In this document: positions 27,412 to 47,632 of the stretch, in pieces
Layout of the letters: the number at the start of each line of letters is the position of its first letter
Position numbering within the stretch: the first letter of the stretch is position 1
DNA from: Patescibacteria group bacterium
GTDB taxonomy: Bacteria > Patescibacteriota > Patescibacteriia > UBA9934
Assembly (NCBI GenBank): GCA_041660165.1
Contig: JBAZWW010000001.1
Coordinates: 28,009 to 92,008 of the forward strand
DNA: 64,000 nucleotides
Direction of reading: 5' to 3'
Notes under the pieces: generated by a model
Databases searched by the model: none
What the model was told of the DNA's origin: nothing
What the model saw: only the letters and a program-made list of their open reading frames with translations
Program-made: the position numbers and the translations under genes

Positions 27412-28755
27412 GTGCTGTCAGAACCTTCCCTTCGCCGTCCGTTGAGCTTTCCCGCTCCGGACGGTGTTTTCGTTTTATGTTATGAAAACGCTAGATTATT
27501 GACTAACGATAGGTTGGAATGTATTCTTTTCTGTCGCCTCGCGACAAAGCTCTTTCGTGAGTTTTCAACCCTTTCACCTTCTGGAGGACCAATGTCCGCA
27601 GAGCGTATCAATCAGGCGTTGACGTACTGGGAAGACGTGTGCGCGCTCGAGCGCTACCTTGTCATGTTGGCAGACCTGCAAGCTGACAGGAAGTTCAATC
27701 CCAAGGGACCGCTCAAGTATCTCGGACTTCGCGACGCGTTGACGTGCGGTGCGGGTTGGAGCAATGAATATATCTACGAAGGGAACCGTCCTTCGTTGTT
27801 GGCCATGAGGATGCTGCCGGTGATGCTTTACGGCTGGGTGGAGTCATCGAAGCGCATCTTCCGAGTATCGACGGAAACGCTGGACGAGCTTCTTCGGGGA
27901 GAGCATCGACCGCCTCCGGCCACCTGGGAAAAGTTTCCCTGGCCATTCGAGTCATTCGCTGTTTCGTTCGAGACGCCACTGAAGTGGGCGCCGAGCAATG
28001 AAACGTACGATACGGTGCTTGTGGTTAACGTGACGCGGGAAGGTCGCTCCTCCACACTGATCCAATGGCTTCCGGCGCGCCTCGCGGAATATATCCCGCT
28101 CCCCGAGAAGGAGATTATGGGCCTGTGCGAGGATATAAGCGAAGATATTCGTAACGCTCGAGCGAGGATTCGTGGGATGTTGCCCCGCAAGGTACGCAGA
28201 GACATGAAGAAGTACAAGATTTCGTTGCCGTCAGTAGAACAGTTGTATGCACAGCATAATGCTGGCGCGGAAAGGTTAGCGGAGGAAGCTCGAAAGGCCA
28301 TTGAGATGATGAGCCTTCCGTACTATCTCATGGATAAGGCCTACTACGCCGAAATGCACGACTGCCAGGATCAGATTGAGAGCAGCTCTTTCATCTACGC
28401 CTTCTGCAACCTCATCGCGAGAGGTGTGCGCTCGGTTGGCGGGCACTACGGCTCTCCGAAGACGGGGGAGCAGCAAGCGGAAAGTATCGCGGACGGCGCT
28501 CAGCTGTTTGAAGTTGGCTCTCGAGCTCAGTTTGCGACCGGCGAACGAACTCGGAATGACCCCACCGAACCGTCGGGCAAAACGGTGCGACCACATTCGC
28601 GCCGTGGTCACTACAGGCGTATTCGTGGGAGCGGACCCGATGCTCCAAAGTCCCAGTGGGTTAATTCCACCTGGATTCACGAAGAAGAGGCGAAGGTTAA
28701 GGGTTTGATTCCCGTCAGCGAGACCGCGGTCGATACGGACCGTAACGAACCCTGA
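27412..28755 (+). CDS. Hypothetical protein, no family recognised. The start is possibly at 27592.
   Basis: Long ORF. GC content appears higher than in neighbouring genes. Confidence 0.45.
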   Translation: MLSEPSLRRPLSFPAPDGVFVLCYENARLLTNDRLECILFCRLATKLFREFSTLSPSGGPMSAERINQALTYWEDVCALERYLVMLADLQADRKFNPKGPLKYLGLRDALTCGAGWSNEYIYEGNRPSLLAMRMLPVMLYGWVESSKRIFRVSTETLDELLRGEHRPPPATWEKFPWPFESFAVSFETPLKWAPSNETYDTVLVVNVTREGRSSTLIQWLPARLAEYIPLPEKEIMGLCEDISEDIRNARARIRGMLPRKVRRDMKKYKISLPSVEQLYAQHNAGAERLAEEARKAIEMMSLPYYLMDKAYYAEMHDCQDQIESSSFIYAFCNLIARGVRSVGGHYGSPKTGEQQAESIADGAQLFEVGSRAQFATGERTRNDPTEPSGKTVRPHSRRGHYRRIRGSGPDAPKSQWVNSTWIHEEEAKVKGLIPVSETAVDTDRNEP

Positions 28756-28830
28756 GCCTGCGTGTCTCTCGTTCTGATGCCCCGATTGTCTGGAACAGAC
28801 GTCGGGGCGTTTTATTTGCCAAAACAAAAA

Positions 28831-28853
28831 ACCTCTTCATGGCTGAAGTGGTT
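28831..28853. terminator. Bidirectional terminator hairpin, copy 1 of the ccacttcatggctgaagtgg palindrome family
   Basis: aacctcttcatggctgaagtggttt lies between convergent genes, with A-runs and T-runs on both sides. Confidence 0.6.
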
Positions 28854-28869: not shown

Positions 28870-29511
28870 CTAAATCCAACCGGCGCTCACTAAAGCCTCA
28901 CGGACGGCTTCAAAAAGCATTGCGTGTCCTGCATCATTGGGATGCACGCCGTCTTTCAAGAGATGCGTGAAGTCTCCGGATGAAAGAACAGGAAGAACGT
29001 CAACGAAGGAGATGCTCTCGTCTTTGCAAACCCCTTGAATCAAGGCATCGAACTTAGTTACGTGTTCATTGATATAAGCCTTCTCTGGTGACCATGGGAT
29101 GGGATTCACCTTTGCATCATCAACGGGTGATAGCCCCACAAAGATAATTTTGTCTGTATATTTCCTTGCCTTGGTAATCAATGTTGAAATGTTTGCAGTA
29201 AATTTTTCTTGTGGTGTTTTGTTTTCTTGGGTAGCAAAAATAAATTGGCTGTCATTTGTACCAATTGCAAAAACCACGGCGCAGTCTTTTTCCTTTAGAA
29301 GGCGAGCATCCACTTCCGCCTGGAAACGGTCGAGCACACTTGTAGAAGTATCTCCCGAAATGCCAAGATTATAGATGTAATGATAGTAATTTTCATCTTC
29401 GGGCGTAGAAATAATCTTATTATCAACAAATTTTCGTAGCCGCGAAATCCATCCGCCCTCTCTATCCCAAGCGCCGTAGGCAATGCTATCTCCGAAGATA
29501 AGAATGTTCAT
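28870..29511 (-). CDS. SGNH/GDSL hydrolase family protein
   Basis: Block I IFGDSIAYG and block V DGVHPNDAGH. Confidence 0.85.
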   Translation of the reverse strand: MNILIFGDSIAYGAWDREGGWISRLRKFVDNKIISTPEDENYYHYIYNLGISGDTSTSVLDRFQAEVDARLLKEKDCAVVFAIGTNDSQFIFATQENKTPQEKFTANISTLITKARKYTDKIIFVGLSPVDDAKVNPIPWSPEKAYINEHVTKFDALIQGVCKDESISFVDVLPVLSSGDFTHLLKDGVHPNDAGHAMLFEAVREALVSAGWI

Positions 29512-29635: not shown

Positions 29636-30730
29636 TTACGGAGCCGGGATCTTGAGCTTGAGCAGGAACCGCCCGCTCTGCGCCCAGTAGTACCAATCTC
29701 CATTGTCCTCGTGGGGCGCGGTGACGGCGTCAAACGCTCCGGGGAGGAGATCTTCTTCTTTGCAGTTGATCTGGCTACTGACCACTACGCTTACCTTGCC
29801 GTGTGGCCGTTTCACCTCAATGAACTGCCGGGCCTTTCCACCATGTTTGAAGGTGGTGTAGATGTGCCCAAGGCTATAGCGACGTGGCAGAGTGAACTCA
29901 GGACCAAGCCTTCCGCGCCCCTCGTGTTGTCGGACGGAGCTGCCCAACTGGGTGAGCATCATGATCGGCTCGTCAACCTTATGGACAGTGTTGAACGCGA
30001 CATGATCAAAGGAGCGGACGTTGTAATACCTGCTCTCACCCTCCTCGATGACGTGCATCGCCCCGGACTTGCTTTCAAGGACTCCCACGAGTCCGATTTT
30101 GGTCTGCACGAGCTGATTGTGGGTGCAGTCGGAGCACAGCACGGTACTTTTTTTAGTTGATGGATCGAAGGCGAACACGCGGTTCACGTTGCGATGCCCA
30201 TCCCACGCCGATTCGTCACAGATCACGCATCCTTCCTCGTTGATGAAGAAGGCGCGCAGTTCCTTACCCATGAGTACGGGCTGGTCGTAGGCGATCAGAG
30301 TTCGCTCATCCGTTCGTTGCGCAGTCTTGCCCGTATTCTGCCACCAGTAATACGGGCGGTGATGATCATGACCAACGTACTGAACCGTGTTGCGGTCGAT
30401 TTCATGGTCGGGCACGGTCGCAATTACGTTCACGAGCGGTCGGATGATGGTGCTACGGCCGTAGCTCCTCTTGTCGAAGTATGAGCAACAGATCGAGATG
30501 TTCCCGTCGCCCGCTGACTTCGTGTACTGAGTGACCGGCTCGTTATTATGAACGCCCACAAGCGACCAATCAAGCCACGTGTCCGACACCGCATTCACGG
30601 AGACGGTGTGCGCCGGCAGGATCGGGCCGTCAGGCGCTTGCCCGATGGCGGAGATTTCCTTCTCCGTCACTTCTGCGCTGGCGAATTGCTGAGCCAGCCA
30701 GCTGAGCTGATTCCAATCATTCCTATTCAT
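29636..30730 (-). CDS. Hypothetical protein. A metallophosphoesterase-like VGHDHH motif is a very weak hint.
   Basis: Long ORF with no signal peptide. It is Cys/His-rich. Confidence 0.35.
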   Translation of the reverse strand: MNRNDWNQLSWLAQQFASAEVTEKEISAIGQAPDGPILPAHTVSVNAVSDTWLDWSLVGVHNNEPVTQYTKSAGDGNISICCSYFDKRSYGRSTIIRPLVNVIATVPDHEIDRNTVQYVGHDHHRPYYWWQNTGKTAQRTDERTLIAYDQPVLMGKELRAFFINEEGCVICDESAWDGHRNVNRVFAFDPSTKKSTVLCSDCTHNQLVQTKIGLVGVLESKSGAMHVIEEGESRYYNVRSFDHVAFNTVHKVDEPIMMLTQLGSSVRQHEGRGRLGPEFTLPRRYSLGHIYTTFKHGGKARQFIEVKRPHGKVSVVVSSQINCKEEDLLPGAFDAVTAPHEDNGDWYYWAQSGRFLLKLKIPAP

Positions 30731-30877: not shown

Positions 30878-30956
30878 AAAACAAAGAGCGCACCAACGGG
30901 CTACGCTCTCTGCAACGATTAAACGTTGAGGACACGTGGCCGCGCTAGTGCGCGAG
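30878..30956. repeat. Conserved ~80-bp 3'-flank element, copy 1, containing a terminator hairpin (agagcg/cgctct stem)
   Basis: About 95% identical to 32888-32966. It lies immediately downstream of the stop of the - strand gene. Confidence 0.7.
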
Positions 30957-31892
30957 CTAATGACTGAGGTTGGACACGTCTCCCGTGAGGTTGTTGATGT
31001 TACCTTCAAGGCGACTGACGTCGCCCGTGATGTCCGTGACGTTGCCATTGATGTAGGTGACGTTACCCGTGATGTTCGTCGCATCACCGTAGATACCCGT
31101 CACGAAGCCTGAGATGTTCGTCACGTCGCCCCGCAGGTTGCTGATGTCGCCACTGAGGTCGCTGACGTTGCCCGTGATATCCGTAGCGACGCCTTTGATG
31201 TTGCTGACGTCGCCCGTAATGTCCGTCGCGTCACCGTAGATGCCCGTCACGAAGCCTGAGATGTTCGTCACGTTGCCCCGCAGGTTGCTGACGTCGCCAC
31301 TGAGGTCCTTGACGTCGCCCATGACGTCCGTGACGTTGCCGGTGAGATTGCTGACGTCGCCCGTGATGTTAGTCACGTCTCCGTAAATAGTACCCGCGTT
31401 GCCAGAGATGTTAGTCACGTTGCCCCGCAGGTAATCAATTCTGCCTTTGAGATCGCTGACGTCGCCCGCGATATCCGTAGCGACGCCTTTGATGTTGCTG
31501 ACGTCGCCCGTGATGTCCGTCGCATCGCCGTAGATATTGCTCGCATCGCCCGAGATATTCGTCACGTTGCCCCGCAGGTATTCAACACTGCCTTTGAGAT
31601 CACTGACGTCGCCCGTGATGTTCGTGACATTCCCGCTGAGGTTGCTGACGTCGCCCGTGATGTTAGTCACGTCTCCGTAGATACTGCCTGCGTTTCCACA
31701 GACGTTGGACATGTTACCGCGGATGTTGGGTGAGACCCCGCGAAGTGTACAAGCCTCGGCGGACGTAGCCGGCGCGGACGGGGTGGCAACCGTGACCGCG
31801 GGCATGTTGCTCGCGGGCGCAGAGGCCACCTTCGGCGTCTCGCCCTCACAGGCCACGAGCGAAAGGAGAAACAACAGGGTGAAGGAACGCAT
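30957..31892 (-). CDS. Lipoprotein composed of about 35 tandem octapeptide repeats (consensus x-[ST]-[ND]-[IL]-x-G-[DN]-[VA])
   Basis: Signal peptide and lipobox LLSLVAC, followed by GDVSNLSGNVTNITGDVSDLKG... The DNA shows 24-bp tandem periodicity from roughly 30990 to 31700. Confidence 0.75.
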   Translation of the reverse strand: MRSFTLLFLLSLVACEGETPKVASAPASNMPAVTVATPSAPATSAEACTLRGVSPNIRGNMSNVCGNAGSIYGDVTNITGDVSNLSGNVTNITGDVSDLKGSVEYLRGNVTNISGDASNIYGDATDITGDVSNIKGVATDIAGDVSDLKGRIDYLRGNVTNISGNAGTIYGDVTNITGDVSNLTGNVTDVMGDVKDLSGDVSNLRGNVTNISGFVTGIYGDATDITGDVSNIKGVATDITGNVSDLSGDISNLRGDVTNISGFVTGIYGDATNITGNVTYINGNVTDITGDVSRLEGNINNLTGDVSNLSH

Positions 31893-32035
31893 GAAACCTC
31901 CCTAAAAGGGTGAACGAATGGCACCGAATGTGGCGCCGTTCGACCAACCAAAATATCAGAAAATTTGCATTTCGTCAACGTAGGATGTCTTAAAACGCGT
32001 AAAAATATGGTCATTTTGTTAAATCATCATTACAA

Positions 32036-32061
32036 AAAACCACTTCATGGCTGAAGTGGTT
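32036..32061. terminator. Terminator hairpin, copy 2 of the palindrome family
   Basis: aaaccacttcatggctgaagtggttt, a perfect 11-bp stem. Confidence 0.6.
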
Positions 32062-32076
32062 TCTTGATGTTTTTCC

Positions 32077-32769
32077 TTACACACGAATTACGTCGTATCG
32101 AAGGTGGAGATATGAATTCTTCAACGGCGTAGCGCTTACAAGTTTCGCTGTCTTTAGATATTTGAGATCGTCGAGTGCGTGAAGTGACTCGCCATCTACA
32201 AGAGTCGGGGTTGCTTTGCCACCGACTAAGAGCGGTGCGATCACGAGAGAGAGGTGGTCGATTAAGCCACTTCGTAAAAGCGTGGCGTTCAATGTGCCTC
32301 CCGACTGCACGGTTATTCGATCAGTGTTGTATTTCTGGTATAACTTCTTCAAGAGATCGGGGAAATTAACAGCACCTTCGTATGGCAGGACGATGACATT
32401 TTCATGATTCGAACTAACCGCGGGATGAGCCGGGTTTGTCGTTATAAGGTAAAGCGTCGTCACCCACTTGGAGAGGTATTCAACGCCCTGTGCGGTGAGA
32501 TGTGGCTCATTGTCTACGATCACGAAACTCACTGGAATTTTACTTGGTGGTTCCGTCCGATCATTGACACCAATTTTTGCCATGACACGTCCTGTATTGA
32601 GGGAGACAAGATCGGTCTGCTGTTCCAGATCGTAATACTGTTGAAGCCCATCTTTCACGCCAGATATCAGTTTTAGATCGTGGTCAAAATCCATGGCATC
32701 CGTATCACCGGTAGAGATTTTACCGTCGATCGACATGAGCATGAAGAGGGTTGTTTTGGGGCGGTTCAT
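32077..32769 (-). CDS. Dihydrofolate reductase-like / RibD C-terminal domain reductase family protein
   Basis: LFMLMSIDGKISTGD and a C-terminal ITVQSGGTLNATLLRSGLIDHLSLVIAPLLVGG. Confidence 0.75.
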   Translation of the reverse strand: MNRPKTTLFMLMSIDGKISTGDTDAMDFDHDLKLISGVKDGLQQYYDLEQQTDLVSLNTGRVMAKIGVNDRTEPPSKIPVSFVIVDNEPHLTAQGVEYLSKWVTTLYLITTNPAHPAVSSNHENVIVLPYEGAVNFPDLLKKLYQKYNTDRITVQSGGTLNATLLRSGLIDHLSLVIAPLLVGGKATPTLVDGESLHALDDLKYLKTAKLVSATPLKNSYLHLRYDVIRV

Positions 32770-32823: not shown

Positions 32824-32848
32824 AAACCACTTCATGGTTGAAGTGGTT
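32824..32848. terminator. Terminator hairpin, copy 3 of the palindrome family
   Basis: aaaccacttcatggttgaagtggtt. Confidence 0.55.
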
Positions 32849-32887: not shown

Positions 32888-32966
32888 GAAAACAAAGAGC
32901 GCACCAACGGGCTACGCTCTCTGCAACGATTTAACGTTGAGGTACGCGGCCGCGCTAGTGCGCGAG
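32888..32966. repeat. Conserved ~80-bp 3'-flank element, copy 2
   Basis: aaacaaagagcgcaccaacgggctacgctctctgcaacgat[ta]aacgttgagg...gccgcgctagtgcgcgag is shared with copy 1. Confidence 0.7.
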
Positions 32967-33457: not shown

Positions 33458-33730
33458 TTAGTGTTTGTGTTTGTAGTCAATTTTATGAAACTCGTGTTGG
33501 TGTTGCTTTTTCATCTGTTTATGTCCGGCTCCGCTTTTCAGATATATCTCTCGAGCTTTTGCATCCTTTTTGTTTCGGTAGCACTCATAATAAATGAGTT
33601 CAACTGGACGGCGATGTTTTGTAGATTTTGCGCCACCGGCTTGGTGTGTTTCGATTCTCTGTTTTAGGTTCTCTGAATAGCCGATGTACAAATTTTGATC
33701 CGCGCAAAAGAGAACATAAACATAATACAT
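33458..33730 (-). CDS. GIY-YIG nuclease family protein (UPF0213/YhbQ-like)
   Basis: YYVYVLFCADQNLYIGYSENLKQRIETHQAGGAKSTKHRRPVELIYYECY. Confidence 0.8.
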   Translation of the reverse strand: MYYVYVLFCADQNLYIGYSENLKQRIETHQAGGAKSTKHRRPVELIYYECYRNKKDAKAREIYLKSGAGHKQMKKQHQHEFHKIDYKHKH

Positions 33731-33915
33731 ATTTGAAAGTGTAGCACCGTTTCGTCTGATGTGGAGACCAGCCACGTCCGACGTGGCTGGTGGTACAAAC
33801 ATGATGAAAGATGCTGCCCGTCAAACGGGCCCCAGGCCTTCTATAACAAAACTCCCAGTTAGTACTGAGAGTGTTGTTTGGTTCTGTCGAATTGGCTTTA
33901 GGCCGTTCGACGGCC

Positions 33916-33990
33916 TGGTGACCTCACCGGGAATCGAACCCGGATCTACACCGTGAGAGGGTGCCGTCCTAACCGTTAGACGATGAGGCC
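33916..33990 (-). tRNA. tRNA-Glu (anticodon CUC) with encoded CCA
   Basis: Manual fold: acceptor GGCCTCA/TGAGGTC, D-arm GTCT-AACGGTTA-GGAC, anticodon stem GCACC/GGTGT with loop CTCTCAC, and T-arm CCGGG-TTCGATT-CCCGG. Confidence 0.8.
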
Positions 33991-44730: not shown

Positions 44731-44989
44731 AAGTGGCGGAAGTATAGAGGAGAGTCTGGGAACTGTCAACGAATAGATGTGTACTTTTTTAGCCAAAGTA
44801 AGCCAAGTAATAAGCCTTTAGTCAGGATTATCCGTCCTCATCACCCCGTTTTTTGACAAACCTTAGCGATTTAAGTAGGATCCCGGGTCCGTCCTCTCCC
44901 TCACGGGGATGATTGGACGGTGCGACTTGAGTGCAGTGATGACAGTGACGATAGAGTTTGCCGGCGGATTCCCCGCCACGGAGGCAATA

Positions 44990-47632
44990 ATGGATACCAG
45001 TTCGGTTTTCAAGGCGGTAATGCGCTTCGCAACGATGAGCTTCGTGCTCCTCGCGGCGTGTGGAACGAAGGACGGCCTCCCGTCCGGGGCAACCCGGATC
45101 AACAACGAAGCCGAAATGCGTACGTGTGCGAATGAGCAGCGGTTGTTGGCCGGACAGGACCTCGACCGCGACGGTGTGGGCGGGCCGATCCAGTGGTGCC
45201 TGGACCCGCTGGCAGTCGTTCCGCACCTCAGCACGTCCACCGGCGACTGCAATGATGAAAACCCTGCCGTGTTTCCGGGCGCCGTCGAGATCGCGAACAA
45301 GATCGACGACGACTGCGACGGCTTGGTGGACGACAGCTCGATTACGTCCGTCATGGACTGTAAGTCGAATCTGGACGGCGACAACTACGCCTCCACGCTC
45401 GGCGTCATGCACAGCGAGGATTTGGACTGCCTGGATGCGGGGGAAGCCCCGGCGTCCACGCAGGGTGGCGACTGTGATGACACGCAGGCGGGCATCTACC
45501 CGTTCGCACCTGAGACGTGCAACGGTAAGGATGATGGTTGCGATGATATCATCGACAACGCCCTGGGGTACACCGATTTCCACGCGGACAAGGACGCGGA
45601 CAGCTTCGGTTCTGCCACGGACATCGTGAACTCGTGCGCCCAACCCGCGAACTACGTGAACAACCAGAACGGCGTGGACTGTGACGACGCTCACGCGTCT
45701 GCGCACCCCGGCGGGACGGAAGTCTGCGACGCCCTCGACAACAACTGCAACGGCACCGCGGACGAGGGGTTGGGCTGTAACGCGTTCTACTTCACGGACG
45801 CGGACAAGGACAGCTACGGCAATCCCGTCACGGCTCACACCATCGCGGTAGCTGGCGACGTCACGAACGGTCTGGACTGCGACGACGCGAACGTGCTCCG
45901 CAATCCCGGCAAGGTCGAAGTCCAGGGCAACGGCCTCGACGACGACTGCGACGACGGTACGTCGGACAACCCGGGCAAGTTCTGCCGGGACTTCGACAAC
46001 GACGGCGTGGGCGACGAGCTCTACGGAACGCGCACTACGGCGCAGGCCGGGTACGTGGCGTCGTGCGACGACTGTCGCGACGACTTGAACCCTGTCCATC
46101 CGGGCGCGATCGAGGTCATCGGCGACGAGGTCGACAACGACTGCAACCCCGTCACGAAGGATACGGTCACGACCGGCACGTACTACGCGGACAAGGACGG
46201 GGACACCTACGGCGACAAGTCCGTGGTGGTCACCGTGGCCACGCCCGGGTACGTGGTGGACAGCACCGACTGCAACGACAACGACAAGACGGCTCACCCC
46301 GGCGCCACGGAAGTGGTGGGCGACGGCGTGGACCAGGACTGCAGCGGGTTCGAGGTCTGCTTCCTCGACAACGATAGCGATAAGTTCCGTGACACCTCGG
46401 GACAGCTCTACAACTCCAACGACCTCGACTGCGTGGATACGCGCGAGGCCGGAATCGGGGTCCCGACCACGGACTGCGATGACAACGACCCCACCATCAA
46501 CCCGAACGTCACGGAGGTGATCGGCGACCAGAAGGACCAGAACTGTGATGGGAAAGAGGTCTGCTACCTCGACATCGACCAGGACGGCTTCCGGTTCATC
46601 GGAAGCCCGAACGATACGTACGACAGCAATACCGATGTGGACTGTCTCGACAAGTTCGAGGCCTCGGCCGCGACTCCGGCAACGGACTGCGCCGAAATCG
46701 ACAAAAACATTCACCCCGGCGCGATGGAGATCCCGGCCGACGGGATCGACCAGAACTGCGACGGCAAGGAGGTCTGCTGGCGGGACGTGGACGACGACGA
46801 TTACCGGAAGGACACCACTTCCACGATCGACTCGTCGGACATGGACTGCGTGGATACGCAGGAAGCGGTGGCCACCACCGTGGACTGCAACGACAAGAAC
46901 GATACGGTTCACCCCAACGCGACGGAGACGTGTAACAGCGTCGACGACAACTGCGACGGCAAGGTGGACGAGAACGCCACGGGCACCACGTGGTACGCAG
47001 ATACGGACAAGGACGGTTACGGGAACGGTTCCGTGACCGCCGTCGGATGCACGGCCCCCACGGGCTTCGTGTCGGACAAGACCGACTGCGACGACGCGCA
47101 CGCGTTGAGTTACCCTGGCAAGGTCGAGGTCTGCGATGCCCTGGACAACAACTGCGACGGGCTCGTGGACAACGGTCTCACGTGCTCGAACAATCCCCCG
47201 CCTCCCCAGGGGATCTGCCCCACGGGCCAGCGGAGGTACACCGGCACGTTCCAGGTCGGGAGCGCGATCGAGGGCCCGAACATCCTCGACGTGTACGGTA
47301 GCGTGACTGGCGGAGGCGTGAACGAGTTCCCCGCTGGCAGCTGGACCAACGTGGCGCGGTTCCACGTGACCAGGCGCGGAGGCACGGCCACGTTCACGGA
47401 CGAGTCCTGTGTGGCGGATGGCGCCACGGTCCTGTTCTCGGTCTATCTCAAGGACCGCAACGGCCAGGACCACTGGAGCGCGGAAGGTGGTCGCAACGGC
47501 TGTAGCGTGACCGGGGATACTATGGCCCTGGCGAACAGTGCCACGCTCGCGCACGCGTGGATTCCCACCACGCCCGTGTGGAACGGCTACACGGACATTC
47601 GCGAGGGCTGTAACATCAAGTGGCCCTTCTAG
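44990..47632 (+). CDS. GC-rich lipoprotein with about 10 Cys/Asp-rich repeats (MopE-like putative metal-binding motif) and DxDxDG calcium-type motifs
   Basis: RBS GGAGG lies 7 nt upstream of the ATG. Signal peptide and lipobox LLAAC. Repeats of the form DCDD...HPGAxExCDxxDNDCDG and DKDGDTYGD. The opposite strand carries a 908-aa stop-free shadow ORF. Confidence 0.8.
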   Translation: MDTSSVFKAVMRFATMSFVLLAACGTKDGLPSGATRINNEAEMRTCANEQRLLAGQDLDRDGVGGPIQWCLDPLAVVPHLSTSTGDCNDENPAVFPGAVEIANKIDDDCDGLVDDSSITSVMDCKSNLDGDNYASTLGVMHSEDLDCLDAGEAPASTQGGDCDDTQAGIYPFAPETCNGKDDGCDDIIDNALGYTDFHADKDADSFGSATDIVNSCAQPANYVNNQNGVDCDDAHASAHPGGTEVCDALDNNCNGTADEGLGCNAFYFTDADKDSYGNPVTAHTIAVAGDVTNGLDCDDANVLRNPGKVEVQGNGLDDDCDDGTSDNPGKFCRDFDNDGVGDELYGTRTTAQAGYVASCDDCRDDLNPVHPGAIEVIGDEVDNDCNPVTKDTVTTGTYYADKDGDTYGDKSVVVTVATPGYVVDSTDCNDNDKTAHPGATEVVGDGVDQDCSGFEVCFLDNDSDKFRDTSGQLYNSNDLDCVDTREAGIGVPTTDCDDNDPTINPNVTEVIGDQKDQNCDGKEVCYLDIDQDGFRFIGSPNDTYDSNTDVDCLDKFEASAATPATDCAEIDKNIHPGAMEIPADGIDQNCDGKEVCWRDVDDDDYRKDTTSTIDSSDMDCVDTQEAVATTVDCNDKNDTVHPNATETCNSVDDNCDGKVDENATGTTWYADTDKDGYGNGSVTAVGCTAPTGFVSDKTDCDDAHALSYPGKVEVCDALDNNCDGLVDNGLTCSNNPPPPQGICPTGQRRYTGTFQVGSAIEGPNILDVYGSVTGGGVNEFPAGSWTNVARFHVTRRGGTATFTDESCVADGATVLFSVYLKDRNGQDHWSAEGGRNGCSVTGDTMALANSATLAHAWIPTTPVWNGYTDIREGCNIKWPF

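Follow-up and report, generated by a model that had tools for sequence, protein, structure and literature searches.

A putative Patescibacteria lipoprotein built of 37 glycine-led heptapeptides, a candidate coiled-coil rod of the cell envelope

Introduction

Braun's lipoprotein (Lpp), a resident of the Gram-negative outer membrane, is a trimeric spacer of the envelope and ends in a lysine that is cross-linked to peptidoglycan. A heptad signature, small-[DN]-V-[ST]-x-L-x, is common to Lpp, the tail needle of phage P22 (gp26), T4 fibritin, the trimeric autotransporter adhesin (TAA) stalks, archaeal SlaB and the repeat array that we describe here. This array makes up most of a putative lipoprotein encoded on the minus strand at 30957-31892 of a 64,000-nucleotide stretch of DNA, hereafter the window, from a Patescibacteria group bacterium (GenBank assembly GCA_041660165.1, contig JBAZWW010000001.1, positions 28,009 to 92,008 of the forward strand). 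Patescibacteria, or candidate phyla radiation (CPR) bacteria, are tiny, many of them are episymbiotic, and their cell-surface biology is almost unknown.

Short peptide repeats also occur in beta structures, such as the triple beta-helix of T4 gp5C, in which the octapeptide has Gly followed by Asn or Asp, and the beta-roll of the Lolium perenne ice-binding protein, with the motif XXNXVXG. Among the coiled coils, SlaB is a long, membrane-anchored trimeric stalk that maintains a constant spacing between surface layer and membrane (PMC10903991), while trimeric surface stalks with 40-52 near-identical heptads have been described (PMC13580157). An earlier note on the window, made from the DNA letters alone, had read the gene as a lipoprotein of octapeptide repeats, forming a beta-solenoid surface fibre whose length would vary by strand slippage. 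The analysis reported here leads to a heptapeptide unit and modestly favours an alpha-helical coiled coil.

Results and discussion

A lipoprotein-type gene with a heptapeptide array

The open reading frame (ORF) list shows a single complete ORF of 311 amino acids at 30957-31892 (ATG 31892-31890, TAG 30959-30957) and no competing long ORF in the other frames over this interval. Gene calls for the source assembly, ENA ERZ27249449 (contig k141_257999, 142.7 kb), include this gene too, and the reading frame is correct. The product starts with MRSFTLLFLLSLVAC, in which a single basic residue and a hydrophobic core precede the lipobox L-V-A-C (Cys15), and residues 1-15 (MRSFTLLFLLSLVA-C15; minus strand, 31848-31892, with the Cys15 codon TGT at 31848-31850) form a putative type II (lipoprotein) signal peptide. 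Lipoboxes were identified by a regular-expression scan and direct reading of the sequence, using a pattern that requires a basic residue and a hydrophobic core ahead of [LVI][ASTVI][GAS]C, which only two of the window's ORFs of at least 80 amino acids passed, the 311-residue ORF being one of them. On this evidence the protein is of lipoprotein type and Cys15 is probably lipidated, in line with the LVAC signal pointed out before.

The mature protein has 296 residues. It opens with a linker rich in Pro, Ala, Thr and Ser (residues 16-51, EGETPKVASAPASNMPAVTVATPSAPATSAEACTLR; minus strand, 31740-31847), likewise anticipated in the earlier note, which is predicted to be disordered, its predicted local distance difference test (pLDDT) score being below 50 in both AlphaFold runs described below. 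The chain ends inside the heptad array, with ...GDVSNLSH and no terminal Lys. Apart from Cys15, the mature protein contains exactly two cysteines, Cys48 in the linker (31749-31751) and Cys65 (31698-31700), which have a spacing of 17 residues and lie where the linker meets the array. A disulfide between them would be impossible inside one continuous helix, and could form between chains or in a beta fold.

To determine the repeat unit, we used Tandem Repeats Finder (TRF), which places the DNA array at 31014-31706 with periods of 21, 42, 147 and 294 bp, and with no 24-bp period among its results. At lag 7 the protein has a self-identity of 0.40 (z = 16.8 relative to composition-preserving shuffles), which drops to 0.02 (z = −4.0) at lag 8; for the DNA the value is 0.575 (z = 20.2) at lag 21, and the 0.28 seen at lag 24 is not significant (z = 1.6). 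The unit is therefore a heptapeptide encoded by 21 bp, and not the octapeptide of 24 bp suggested earlier; the octapeptides given as examples (GDVSNLSG and others) consist of one heptad plus the first residue of the following unit. The estimate of about 35 tandem units in an almost pure array was accurate in number, since residues 66-310 are 35 regular heptads in perfect register with zero indels. Two degenerate heptads (GVSPNIR and GNMSNVC) come directly before these without a phase break, which gives 37 uninterrupted units over residues 52-310 (259 residues; minus strand, 30963-31739), as delimited by the TRF periods of 21, 147 and 294 bp, the register, the autocorrelation and the position-specific composition.

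The heptads follow the consensus G-[DN]-V-[ST]-[ND]-[IL]-x. Gly occupies position 1 in 37 of 37 units, position 2 is Asp in 18 and Asn in 12, position 4 is Thr in 17 and Ser in 13, and position 5 is Asn in 19 and Asp in 10, while position 7 is variable (Thr, Ser, Arg, Tyr, Lys). Hydrophobic residues are found at positions 3 (Val 24, Ala 8, Ile 3; V/A/I in 35/37) and 6 (Ile 22, Leu 13, Val 2; I/L/V in 37/37) only, the other positions being polar. This 3/4 spacing is the a/d pattern of a coiled coil, and with positions 3 and 6 taken as a and d, Gly takes f and Asp/Asn takes g. Gln is absent from the array, which has only two Glu and nine Ala. The array is acidic, and the whole protein has 34 Asp+Glu against 15 Lys+Arg. 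A higher-order period of 49 residues, or 147 bp, corresponds to seven heptads (lag-49 identity 0.66, z = 28), so that the 35 regular heptads make up five such blocks. Block 1 resembles block 3 and block 2 resembles block 4, which accounts for the DNA periods of 147 and 294 bp.

Evidence for an alpha-helical coiled coil

The Pfam matches of the protein are all to coiled-coil families. LPP (53.9 bits, cut-off 29.1) aligns residues 88-124 with model positions 1-37, and Baculo_PEP_C, DUF1664 and Laminin_II also score above their cut-offs; the NCBIfam matches are SlaB and, weakly, 'major outer membrane lipoprotein'. A sequence search of the PDB retrieved SlaB (8qox, E = 3.9e-7) and P22 gp26 (4lin, E = 4e-4), as well as TAA and reovirus sigma-1 stalks, and these alignments are in heptad register, the Val, Ser/Thr, Ile/Leu and Gly of the array falling on their positions a, b, d and f, respectively. 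Among the PHROGs, residues 140-202 match positions 79-141 of the 233 in the tail needle protein profile (phrog_1219, E = 1.4e-11), and there are further matches to a minor head protein (2e-16) and to virion structural proteins. Every characterised family or solved structure matched by profile is an alpha-helical, mostly trimeric, coiled coil. A profile built from 85 polar six-heptad segments of the family retrieved gp26, T4 fibritin (KGNISSLQGDVQA), Hia (VTNLAGQVNNLEGKVN) and SlaB only, all at non-significant E values of 0.15-0.8, and no beta-solenoid.

The structure predictions point in two directions. AlphaFold2 run on the single sequence yields one helix over residues 55-309 (255 residues) with a pLDDT of about 85-90, at odds with the beta-helix expected in the earlier note, whereas a run with a 34-sequence alignment returns beta strands, as expected there, at low confidence. 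A fold search of BFVD with the helix model found nothing. In 29-46 arrays of the family, the variable positions show a flat profile with no preference for a lag of two, three or four heptads, which fits a coiled coil, although a solenoid with equal sides is also compatible with it. Taken together, these results lead us to regard an alpha-helical coiled coil as the fold that the array somewhat more probably adopts.

Comparison with described coiled-coil fibres

Like Lpp (PF04728, 'lipoprotein leucine-zipper'), the window protein has a lipobox at its N-terminus with a putative lipid anchor, headless heptads that probably form a coiled coil, and units of the form x-D-V-x-x-L-x. However, the window protein is five times longer (mature 296 against 58 residues), has an additional 36-residue disordered linker and Gly in every heptad, and ends in ...SNLSH without the C-terminal Lys; to our knowledge, its Patescibacteria host has no outer membrane. 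The LPP match is one of many equally good coiled-coil matches, and we therefore take it as a likeness of heptads, not as orthology.

P22 gp26 (2POH/4LIN; phrog_1219) and T4 fibritin (1AA0/1AVY) are trimeric fibres with heptads of the type G/T/N-x-[VI]-[ST]-x-[LA]-x that align in register with the array, and two consecutive units of fibritin, G-N-I-S-S-L-Q and G-D-V-Q-A-L-Q, fit the array consensus. They differ in having Gly in some heptads only, in being rich in Ala, Gln and Glu, in carrying tip, beta-helix or foldon domains, and in being parts of virions, whereas the window protein is cellular, putatively lipid-anchored, headless and far more polar. Only the coiled-coil part of gp26 is matched; its portal-plugging tip, triple beta-helix and inverted coiled coil are absent.

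SlaB, the Sulfolobus S-layer stalk (8QOX, NF040788), is the best match in both PDB and NCBIfam and, like the array, has heptads rich in Ser, Thr and Asn (I-[ST]-[SN]-L-x-[GSQ]-x), but it is archaeal and its coiled coil has 132 residues. The TAA stalks (Hia 3EMO, SadA 2WPR, UspA1) are also surface fibres with tens of near-identical heptads, and give weak in-register matches. What sets TAAs apart from the window protein is a 12-stranded beta-barrel anchor at the C-terminus, head domains, frequent polar core layers with Asn at d and the need for an outer membrane; no Pfam match to YadA_anchor, YadA_head or YadA_stalk was found in the window protein. As the other defining features of the Lpp, gp26 and TAA families are absent, the latter belongs to none of the three. 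By analogy, it may work like an elongated Lpp or a SlaB-type stalk, written in the heptad dialect of the phage fibre coiled coils.

Relatives of the array

We searched for proteins with similar arrays and obtained 46 relatives in a word-indexed search. When the window protein was used as query in an exhaustive search, 3150 cluster representatives scored at E<=1e-3, 471 of them at E<=1e-10, numbers that take in more conventional coiled-coil fibres too. The polar subfamily nearest to the window protein has the consensus G-[DN]-[VAC]-[ST]-x-[IL]-x. An orthologue sharing the N-terminal region was not found in JGI metagenome contigs, where the 17 matches cover the heptads only, and the exact 311-residue sequence is missing from the clustered protein collection; an identical 311-residue product is recorded, by position, in several blocks of the assembly collection.

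In its relatives the array is combined with different partners. It is C-terminal to Ser/Thr kinases in P0016 and P0018 and N-terminal to a serine recombinase in P0041, P0138 has a transmembrane anchor, the heptads and a trypsin-like protease in that order, with the array in between, and P0110 is another lipoprotein with heptads. Relatives thus place the array between a membrane anchor and a functional domain and would use it as a stalk, which favours the coiled-coil rod. Many relatives start the array with N-[LI]-T-G-D-x-S-x-I-[WY]-G-D-A, recognised by eye and in nine cases by regular expression. Many relatives, among P0001-P0046 and P0085, also carry a C-terminal motif of about 25 residues, (N/D)-(L/I)-D-x-C-(G)-(L/I)-T-x-x-D-R-x-x-G-(V/I)-(D/N)-I-x-D-L, which was delineated by visual inspection only, a too strict regular expression having returned none. 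This motif (e.g. NLDxCGLTxxDRxxGVDIxDLV), which the window protein does not have, matched no described motif; it might be a trimerisation knob, in which case it would parallel the foldon of T4 fibritin, or else a solenoid cap.

The beta-solenoid alternative

Several observations weigh against a coiled coil. The invariant Gly would lie at f, which is exposed to solvent and where Gly is not required by a coiled coil, and the mean helix-propensity cost of the array, 0.605 kcal/mol per residue, exceeds those of SlaB (0.48) and gp26 (0.44). Position 5 of the relatives' heptads, too, is most often Gly (21%), and there are arrays with two or three Gly in a heptad (GGVSGLQ). The irregular units of the relatives are mostly of eight residues (33, several with Pro, e.g. 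GKVSPTLS) or six (8); units of 10 and 11 residues, the stammers and stutters that coiled coils typically show, are rare, with 3 and 2 cases. The alignment-based AlphaFold2 model places five-residue strands at heptad positions 3-7 and two-residue G-D turns between them. The window protein has no head or ligand domain that would hint at its function. Finally, in 8qox, the best PDB match, the coiled coil of SlaB is an AlphaFold prediction that was fitted to a sub-tomogram map (PMC10903991).

The strongest alternative is accordingly a beta fold, in which each heptad would contribute one short strand, V-S-N-I-x, and a two-residue G-[DN] turn. Stacked heptads would form a compact fibre of about 6-9 nm, a heptapeptide beta-solenoid or beta-roll comparable to the penta- and hexapeptide-repeat helices or to the seven-residue-motif beta-roll of the Lolium ice-binding protein; an intertwined triple beta-helix like T4 gp5C is another form that the fold could take. 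G-[DN] is a classic tight-turn dipeptide, and like the peptide-repeat beta-solenoids the array combines a short repeat, an invariant Gly followed by Asp or Asn and, in the alignment-based model, predicted beta-branched strands rich in Ser, Thr and Asn. This model has strands and turns throughout the array, and its only fold matches are beta-helices (AlgE4, polygalacturonases, tailspikes and MfpA). The composition of the array, rich in beta and turn formers and very low in helix propensity, points the same way, as do the Gly at position 5 and the Pro-containing eight-residue units of the family, with indels of +1/−1 rather than +3/+4, and the start and C-terminal motifs of the relatives, which are reminiscent of solenoid caps.

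Against this, the model is irregular and of low confidence (mean pLDDT 57.7, 70-76 for residues 220-300, no residue at or above 90), and it has no significant structural neighbour, the best Foldseek matches reaching E = 3e-3 with TM-scores <=0.27 in the PDB and E = 9e-4 with TM-scores <=0.28 in BFVD. The 3/4 hydrophobic spacing is unfit for a regular strand: Val3 and Ile/Leu6 are three residues apart and would point to opposite faces, leaving one conserved hydrophobic ladder exposed. Sequence and profile searches retrieve no solved beta-solenoid, compared with four solved or modelled trimeric coiled coils, and no Pfam or NCBIfam match at E<=1 was obtained for Hexapep PF00132, Pentapeptide PF00805, RTX, bactofilin or ice-binding beta-roll models. 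The variable positions show no stacking periodicity of two, three or four heptads, and the C-terminal motif, which may equally be a foldon-like knob, is a feature of the relatives and not of the window protein. We know of no described heptapeptide solenoid family with the array consensus. The profile matches, the a/d spacing and the single-sequence helix thus make the beta-solenoid surface fibre proposed earlier the less well supported fold; it is somewhat unlikely, though a serious contender.

A broader, and unlikely, version of this idea is that the unit G-[DN]-[VAC]-[ST]-x-[IL]-x defines an undescribed heptapeptide-repeat fold class, with its own start motif (N-L-T-G-D-x-S-x-I-W-G-D-A) and C-terminal cap (N-L-D-x-C-G-L-T-x-x-D-R-x-x-G-V-D-I-x-D-L). 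It would be a beta-solenoid or beta-roll, possibly Ca2+-dependent like the RTX repeats given the acidic G-D turns, or a sequence poised between coiled coil and beta fibre, and phage proteins, kinases, recombinases, proteases and the CPR surface lipoprotein would all employ it as a modular rod. Pfam and NCBIfam have no model specific to the repeat, its members matching generic coiled-coil families or none, and a literature search with the motif strings and for heptapeptide beta-helices returned no description of it.

The Gly-invariant polar heptad is thus widespread in metagenomic protein clusters without a specific model in Pfam or NCBIfam. The alpha/beta question lends it some structural interest. 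As AlphaFold flips between all-alpha and all-beta depending on the input, the repeat is a useful test case for where coiled coils give way to beta fibres. Should it be no more than a coiled coil, it would represent a known design in an extreme but otherwise ordinary form.

Proposed role of the coiled-coil rod

Under the coiled-coil interpretation, signal peptidase II would cleave the precursor, and the acylated Cys15 would anchor the protein in the outer leaflet of the cytoplasmic membrane. The linker of about 36 residues, predicted to be disordered, would provide reach and flexibility, and the 37 heptads, with Val at a and Ile/Leu at d, would assemble into a parallel, probably trimeric, coiled-coil rod. 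From the 255 residues of the predicted helix and a rise of 0.148 nm per residue, such a rod would be about 38 nm long, headless and acidic, with a surface rich in Asn, Asp, Ser and Thr. The rod itself would then be the functional part, a passive stalk, spacer or fibril that spans or projects from the envelope, and not an enzyme or a receptor.

We infer lipidation, helical fold, trimer stoichiometry, surface exposure and the spacer or fibril role, the last because of the analogy with Lpp and SlaB. The complete explanation, a lipid-anchored trimeric coiled-coil rod of about 38 nm serving as envelope spacer or fibril, has in our estimate an even chance of being right. If true, CPR cells would have, in a headless lipid-anchored rod of this length, a simple candidate for the role of envelope spacer or surface fibril.

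Length variation and other functional alternatives

The units of the array are old. TRF matches the 21-bp units at about 63%, and the longest exact DNA repeat in the array is 42 bp, at a spacing of 294 bp. Of the residues that are identical between the 49-residue blocks, 18-46% have different codons, and four codons are in use for Gly. The divergence of the units and these synonymous differences indicate old duplications that are held by selection on the protein. Contingency loci are characterised by near-perfect short tandem repeats, and the 21-bp units are not of this kind. Classical slipped-strand variation of the array, as put forward in the earlier note, is therefore poorly supported and unlikely; the sole plausible length change is recombination between blocks, with in-frame loss or gain of 49 or 98 residues.

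These data bear on the possibility, which we judge improbable, that the protein is a phase- or length-variable surface antigen, its repeat number changing by slipped-strand mispairing or recombination in evasion of immunity or phages. The array of 693-777 bp has 147- and 294-bp super-repeats that are 77-80% identical, with exact repeats of at most 42 bp, and all units are in frame, so that loss or gain of a block keeps the frame. In addition, two independent short-read assemblies end their contigs immediately 3' of the gene: in the Logan assemblies SRR6484324 (L102) and SRR18595301 (L103), contigs with an identical downstream neighbour end 177 and 61 bp upstream of this neighbour, which puts their ends level with or slightly beyond the 3' end of the lipoprotein gene. 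This repeat region evidently defeats short-read assemblers, and the breaks can be explained by the two-copy 80-nt element described below and by the repeats themselves. The weakly matched units and diverged codons are unlike contingency loci with perfect repeats, and the presence of the identical product in several blocks of the assembly collection also speaks against a variable antigen.

A phage-derived module turned against phages, in which the lipoprotein would display the heptad rod of phage fibres and needles and act as a decoy or superinfection-exclusion factor, has a still smaller chance of being correct. The lipoproteins Llp of T5 and Ltp of TP-J34 are analogues in layout. The closest relatives of the array are on phage-like or mobile contigs, L002 (with PhageMetallopep and Peptidase_M15) and L003 (with YopX and a TnpB-like gene), the PHROG matches are to tail needle, minor head and virion structural proteins, and AcrVA2-like, GIY-YIG and tRNA genes and a mosaic of G+C content are found nearby. 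However, the likeness is confined to the repeat and may be convergent, and there are no phage structural, integrase or defence genes nearby, the neighbouring genes having no PHROG or PADLOC match and housekeeping genes lying on both sides.

Least probable of all, and very much so, is an extended, possibly glycosylated mucin-like tether without a folded rod and with a periodicity due to recent duplication only: the very low helix propensity and the 21 N-x-S/T sequons of the array (6.6 ± 2.2 in shuffles) would suit it, but positions 3 and 6 and Gly1 are strictly conserved despite many synonymous and non-synonymous changes elsewhere, the same pattern is kept across hundreds of distant proteins, the array has no D/E-x-N-x-S/T sequon (the Campylobacter-type bacterial N-glycosylation sequon), and Asn5, the source of most of the sequons, is not conserved in the family. 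The case for a function as decoy or glycan carrier is circumstantial.

Transcription signals and repeated hairpins

Upstream of the gene, a consensus scan found a sigma-70-like site on the minus strand at 31950-31978 (TTGACG-17-TATTTT with a TG extension), about 55 nt from the start codon. Since the number of promoter-like sites in the region is not above chance, this one is only suggestive. A Shine-Dalgarno-like AGGGAGG was read from the sequence at 31897-31903 (minus strand), 4 nt before the ATG.

Directly after the stop codon follows an 80-nt element (minus strand, 30878-30956) that resembles an intrinsic terminator, with a long imperfect hairpin and then UCUUUGUUUU; its RNA folds with −39.6 kcal/mol (z = −4.07). 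A second copy, 98% identical, lies 2 kb away at 32889-32966, after the stop codon of a 126-residue ORF; two copies are observed and none expected. In the pairwise alignment the identity begins at the stop codon and stops at the T-run. The two genes that share the element, the lipoprotein gene and the membrane-like 126-residue ORF, are unrelated and both on the minus strand. The element could be a mobile terminator cassette or a shared regulatory element of the 3' untranslated region; it has no match in Rfam, which recognises only two tRNAs in the whole window.

A palindromic 24-nt hairpin, AACCACTTCATGGCTGAAGTGGTT, at 32038-32061 is the terminator of the upstream RibD_C gene and borders the promoter region of the lipoprotein gene. 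The hairpin (AACCNCTTCATGGNTGAAGTGGTT) is present in three copies (28830-28853, 32038-32061 and 32825-32848; none expected) behind neighbouring genes, according to the repeat search and the terminator scan, and the copies have A-runs and T-runs at their flanks. It looks like a bidirectional intrinsic terminator that is reused across the locus. The repeated terminator elements that had been noticed around the gene are thus real, with the hairpin in three and the 80-nt element in two copies. Having its own promoter-like site, Shine-Dalgarno sequence and terminator elements, the lipoprotein gene looks monocistronic.

Genomic neighbourhood

The RpoD encoded in the window is closest, at <=65% identity, to those of Patescibacteria metagenome-assembled genomes (MAGs; Falkowbacteria, Saccharibacteria and Moraniibacteriota). 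Housekeeping genes (maf, rpoD, dnaG, glmS, and genes for a Mur ligase and a transpeptidase) flank the lipoprotein gene on both sides, and its immediate neighbours are small lineage-specific genes, for RibD_C, a GDSL lipase, a 364-residue orphan and an AcrVA2-like protein. A prophage or defence-island context was considered and rejected, because the neighbours lack PHROG and PADLOC matches.

The 364-residue orphan (29636-30730, minus strand), directly downstream of the lipoprotein gene, is rich in Cys, His and Trp and has no Pfam, NCBIfam, PHROG or PADLOC match. It is identical in two Patescibacteria MAGs at NCBI (MFA5945339.1 and MFA6590788.1), and its 90% cluster otherwise contains 42-47-residue fragments only. 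Two genes from the lipoprotein gene, the ORF at 27412-28755 (plus strand) has a precomputed Pfam match to AcrVA2-like (PF26125, an anti-CRISPR-related family) and, like the other neighbours, no PHROG or PADLOC match; it is called as 387 residues in L001 (13138-14301). The G+C content is 0.42 in the GDSL-lipase gene (28870-29511) and 0.46-0.49 in the RibD_C gene (32077-32769), compared with 0.54-0.58 in the surroundings, which suggests a mosaic neighbourhood, possibly horizontally acquired. These AT-richer genes are near a tRNA-Glu gene (33916-33990) and a GIY-YIG nuclease gene (33458-33802).

Further along the window, two ORFs of about 907 residues each, at 44828-47554 (minus strand) and 44909-47632 (plus strand), overlap almost completely on opposite strands. 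The plus-strand ORF has a lipobox-type N-terminus when read from an internal Met (...MRFATMSFVLLAAC; 44990-47632) and is the second lipobox ORF of the window. Judging from this N-terminus, 44990-47632 is probably the real gene of the pair and would encode another large lipoprotein.

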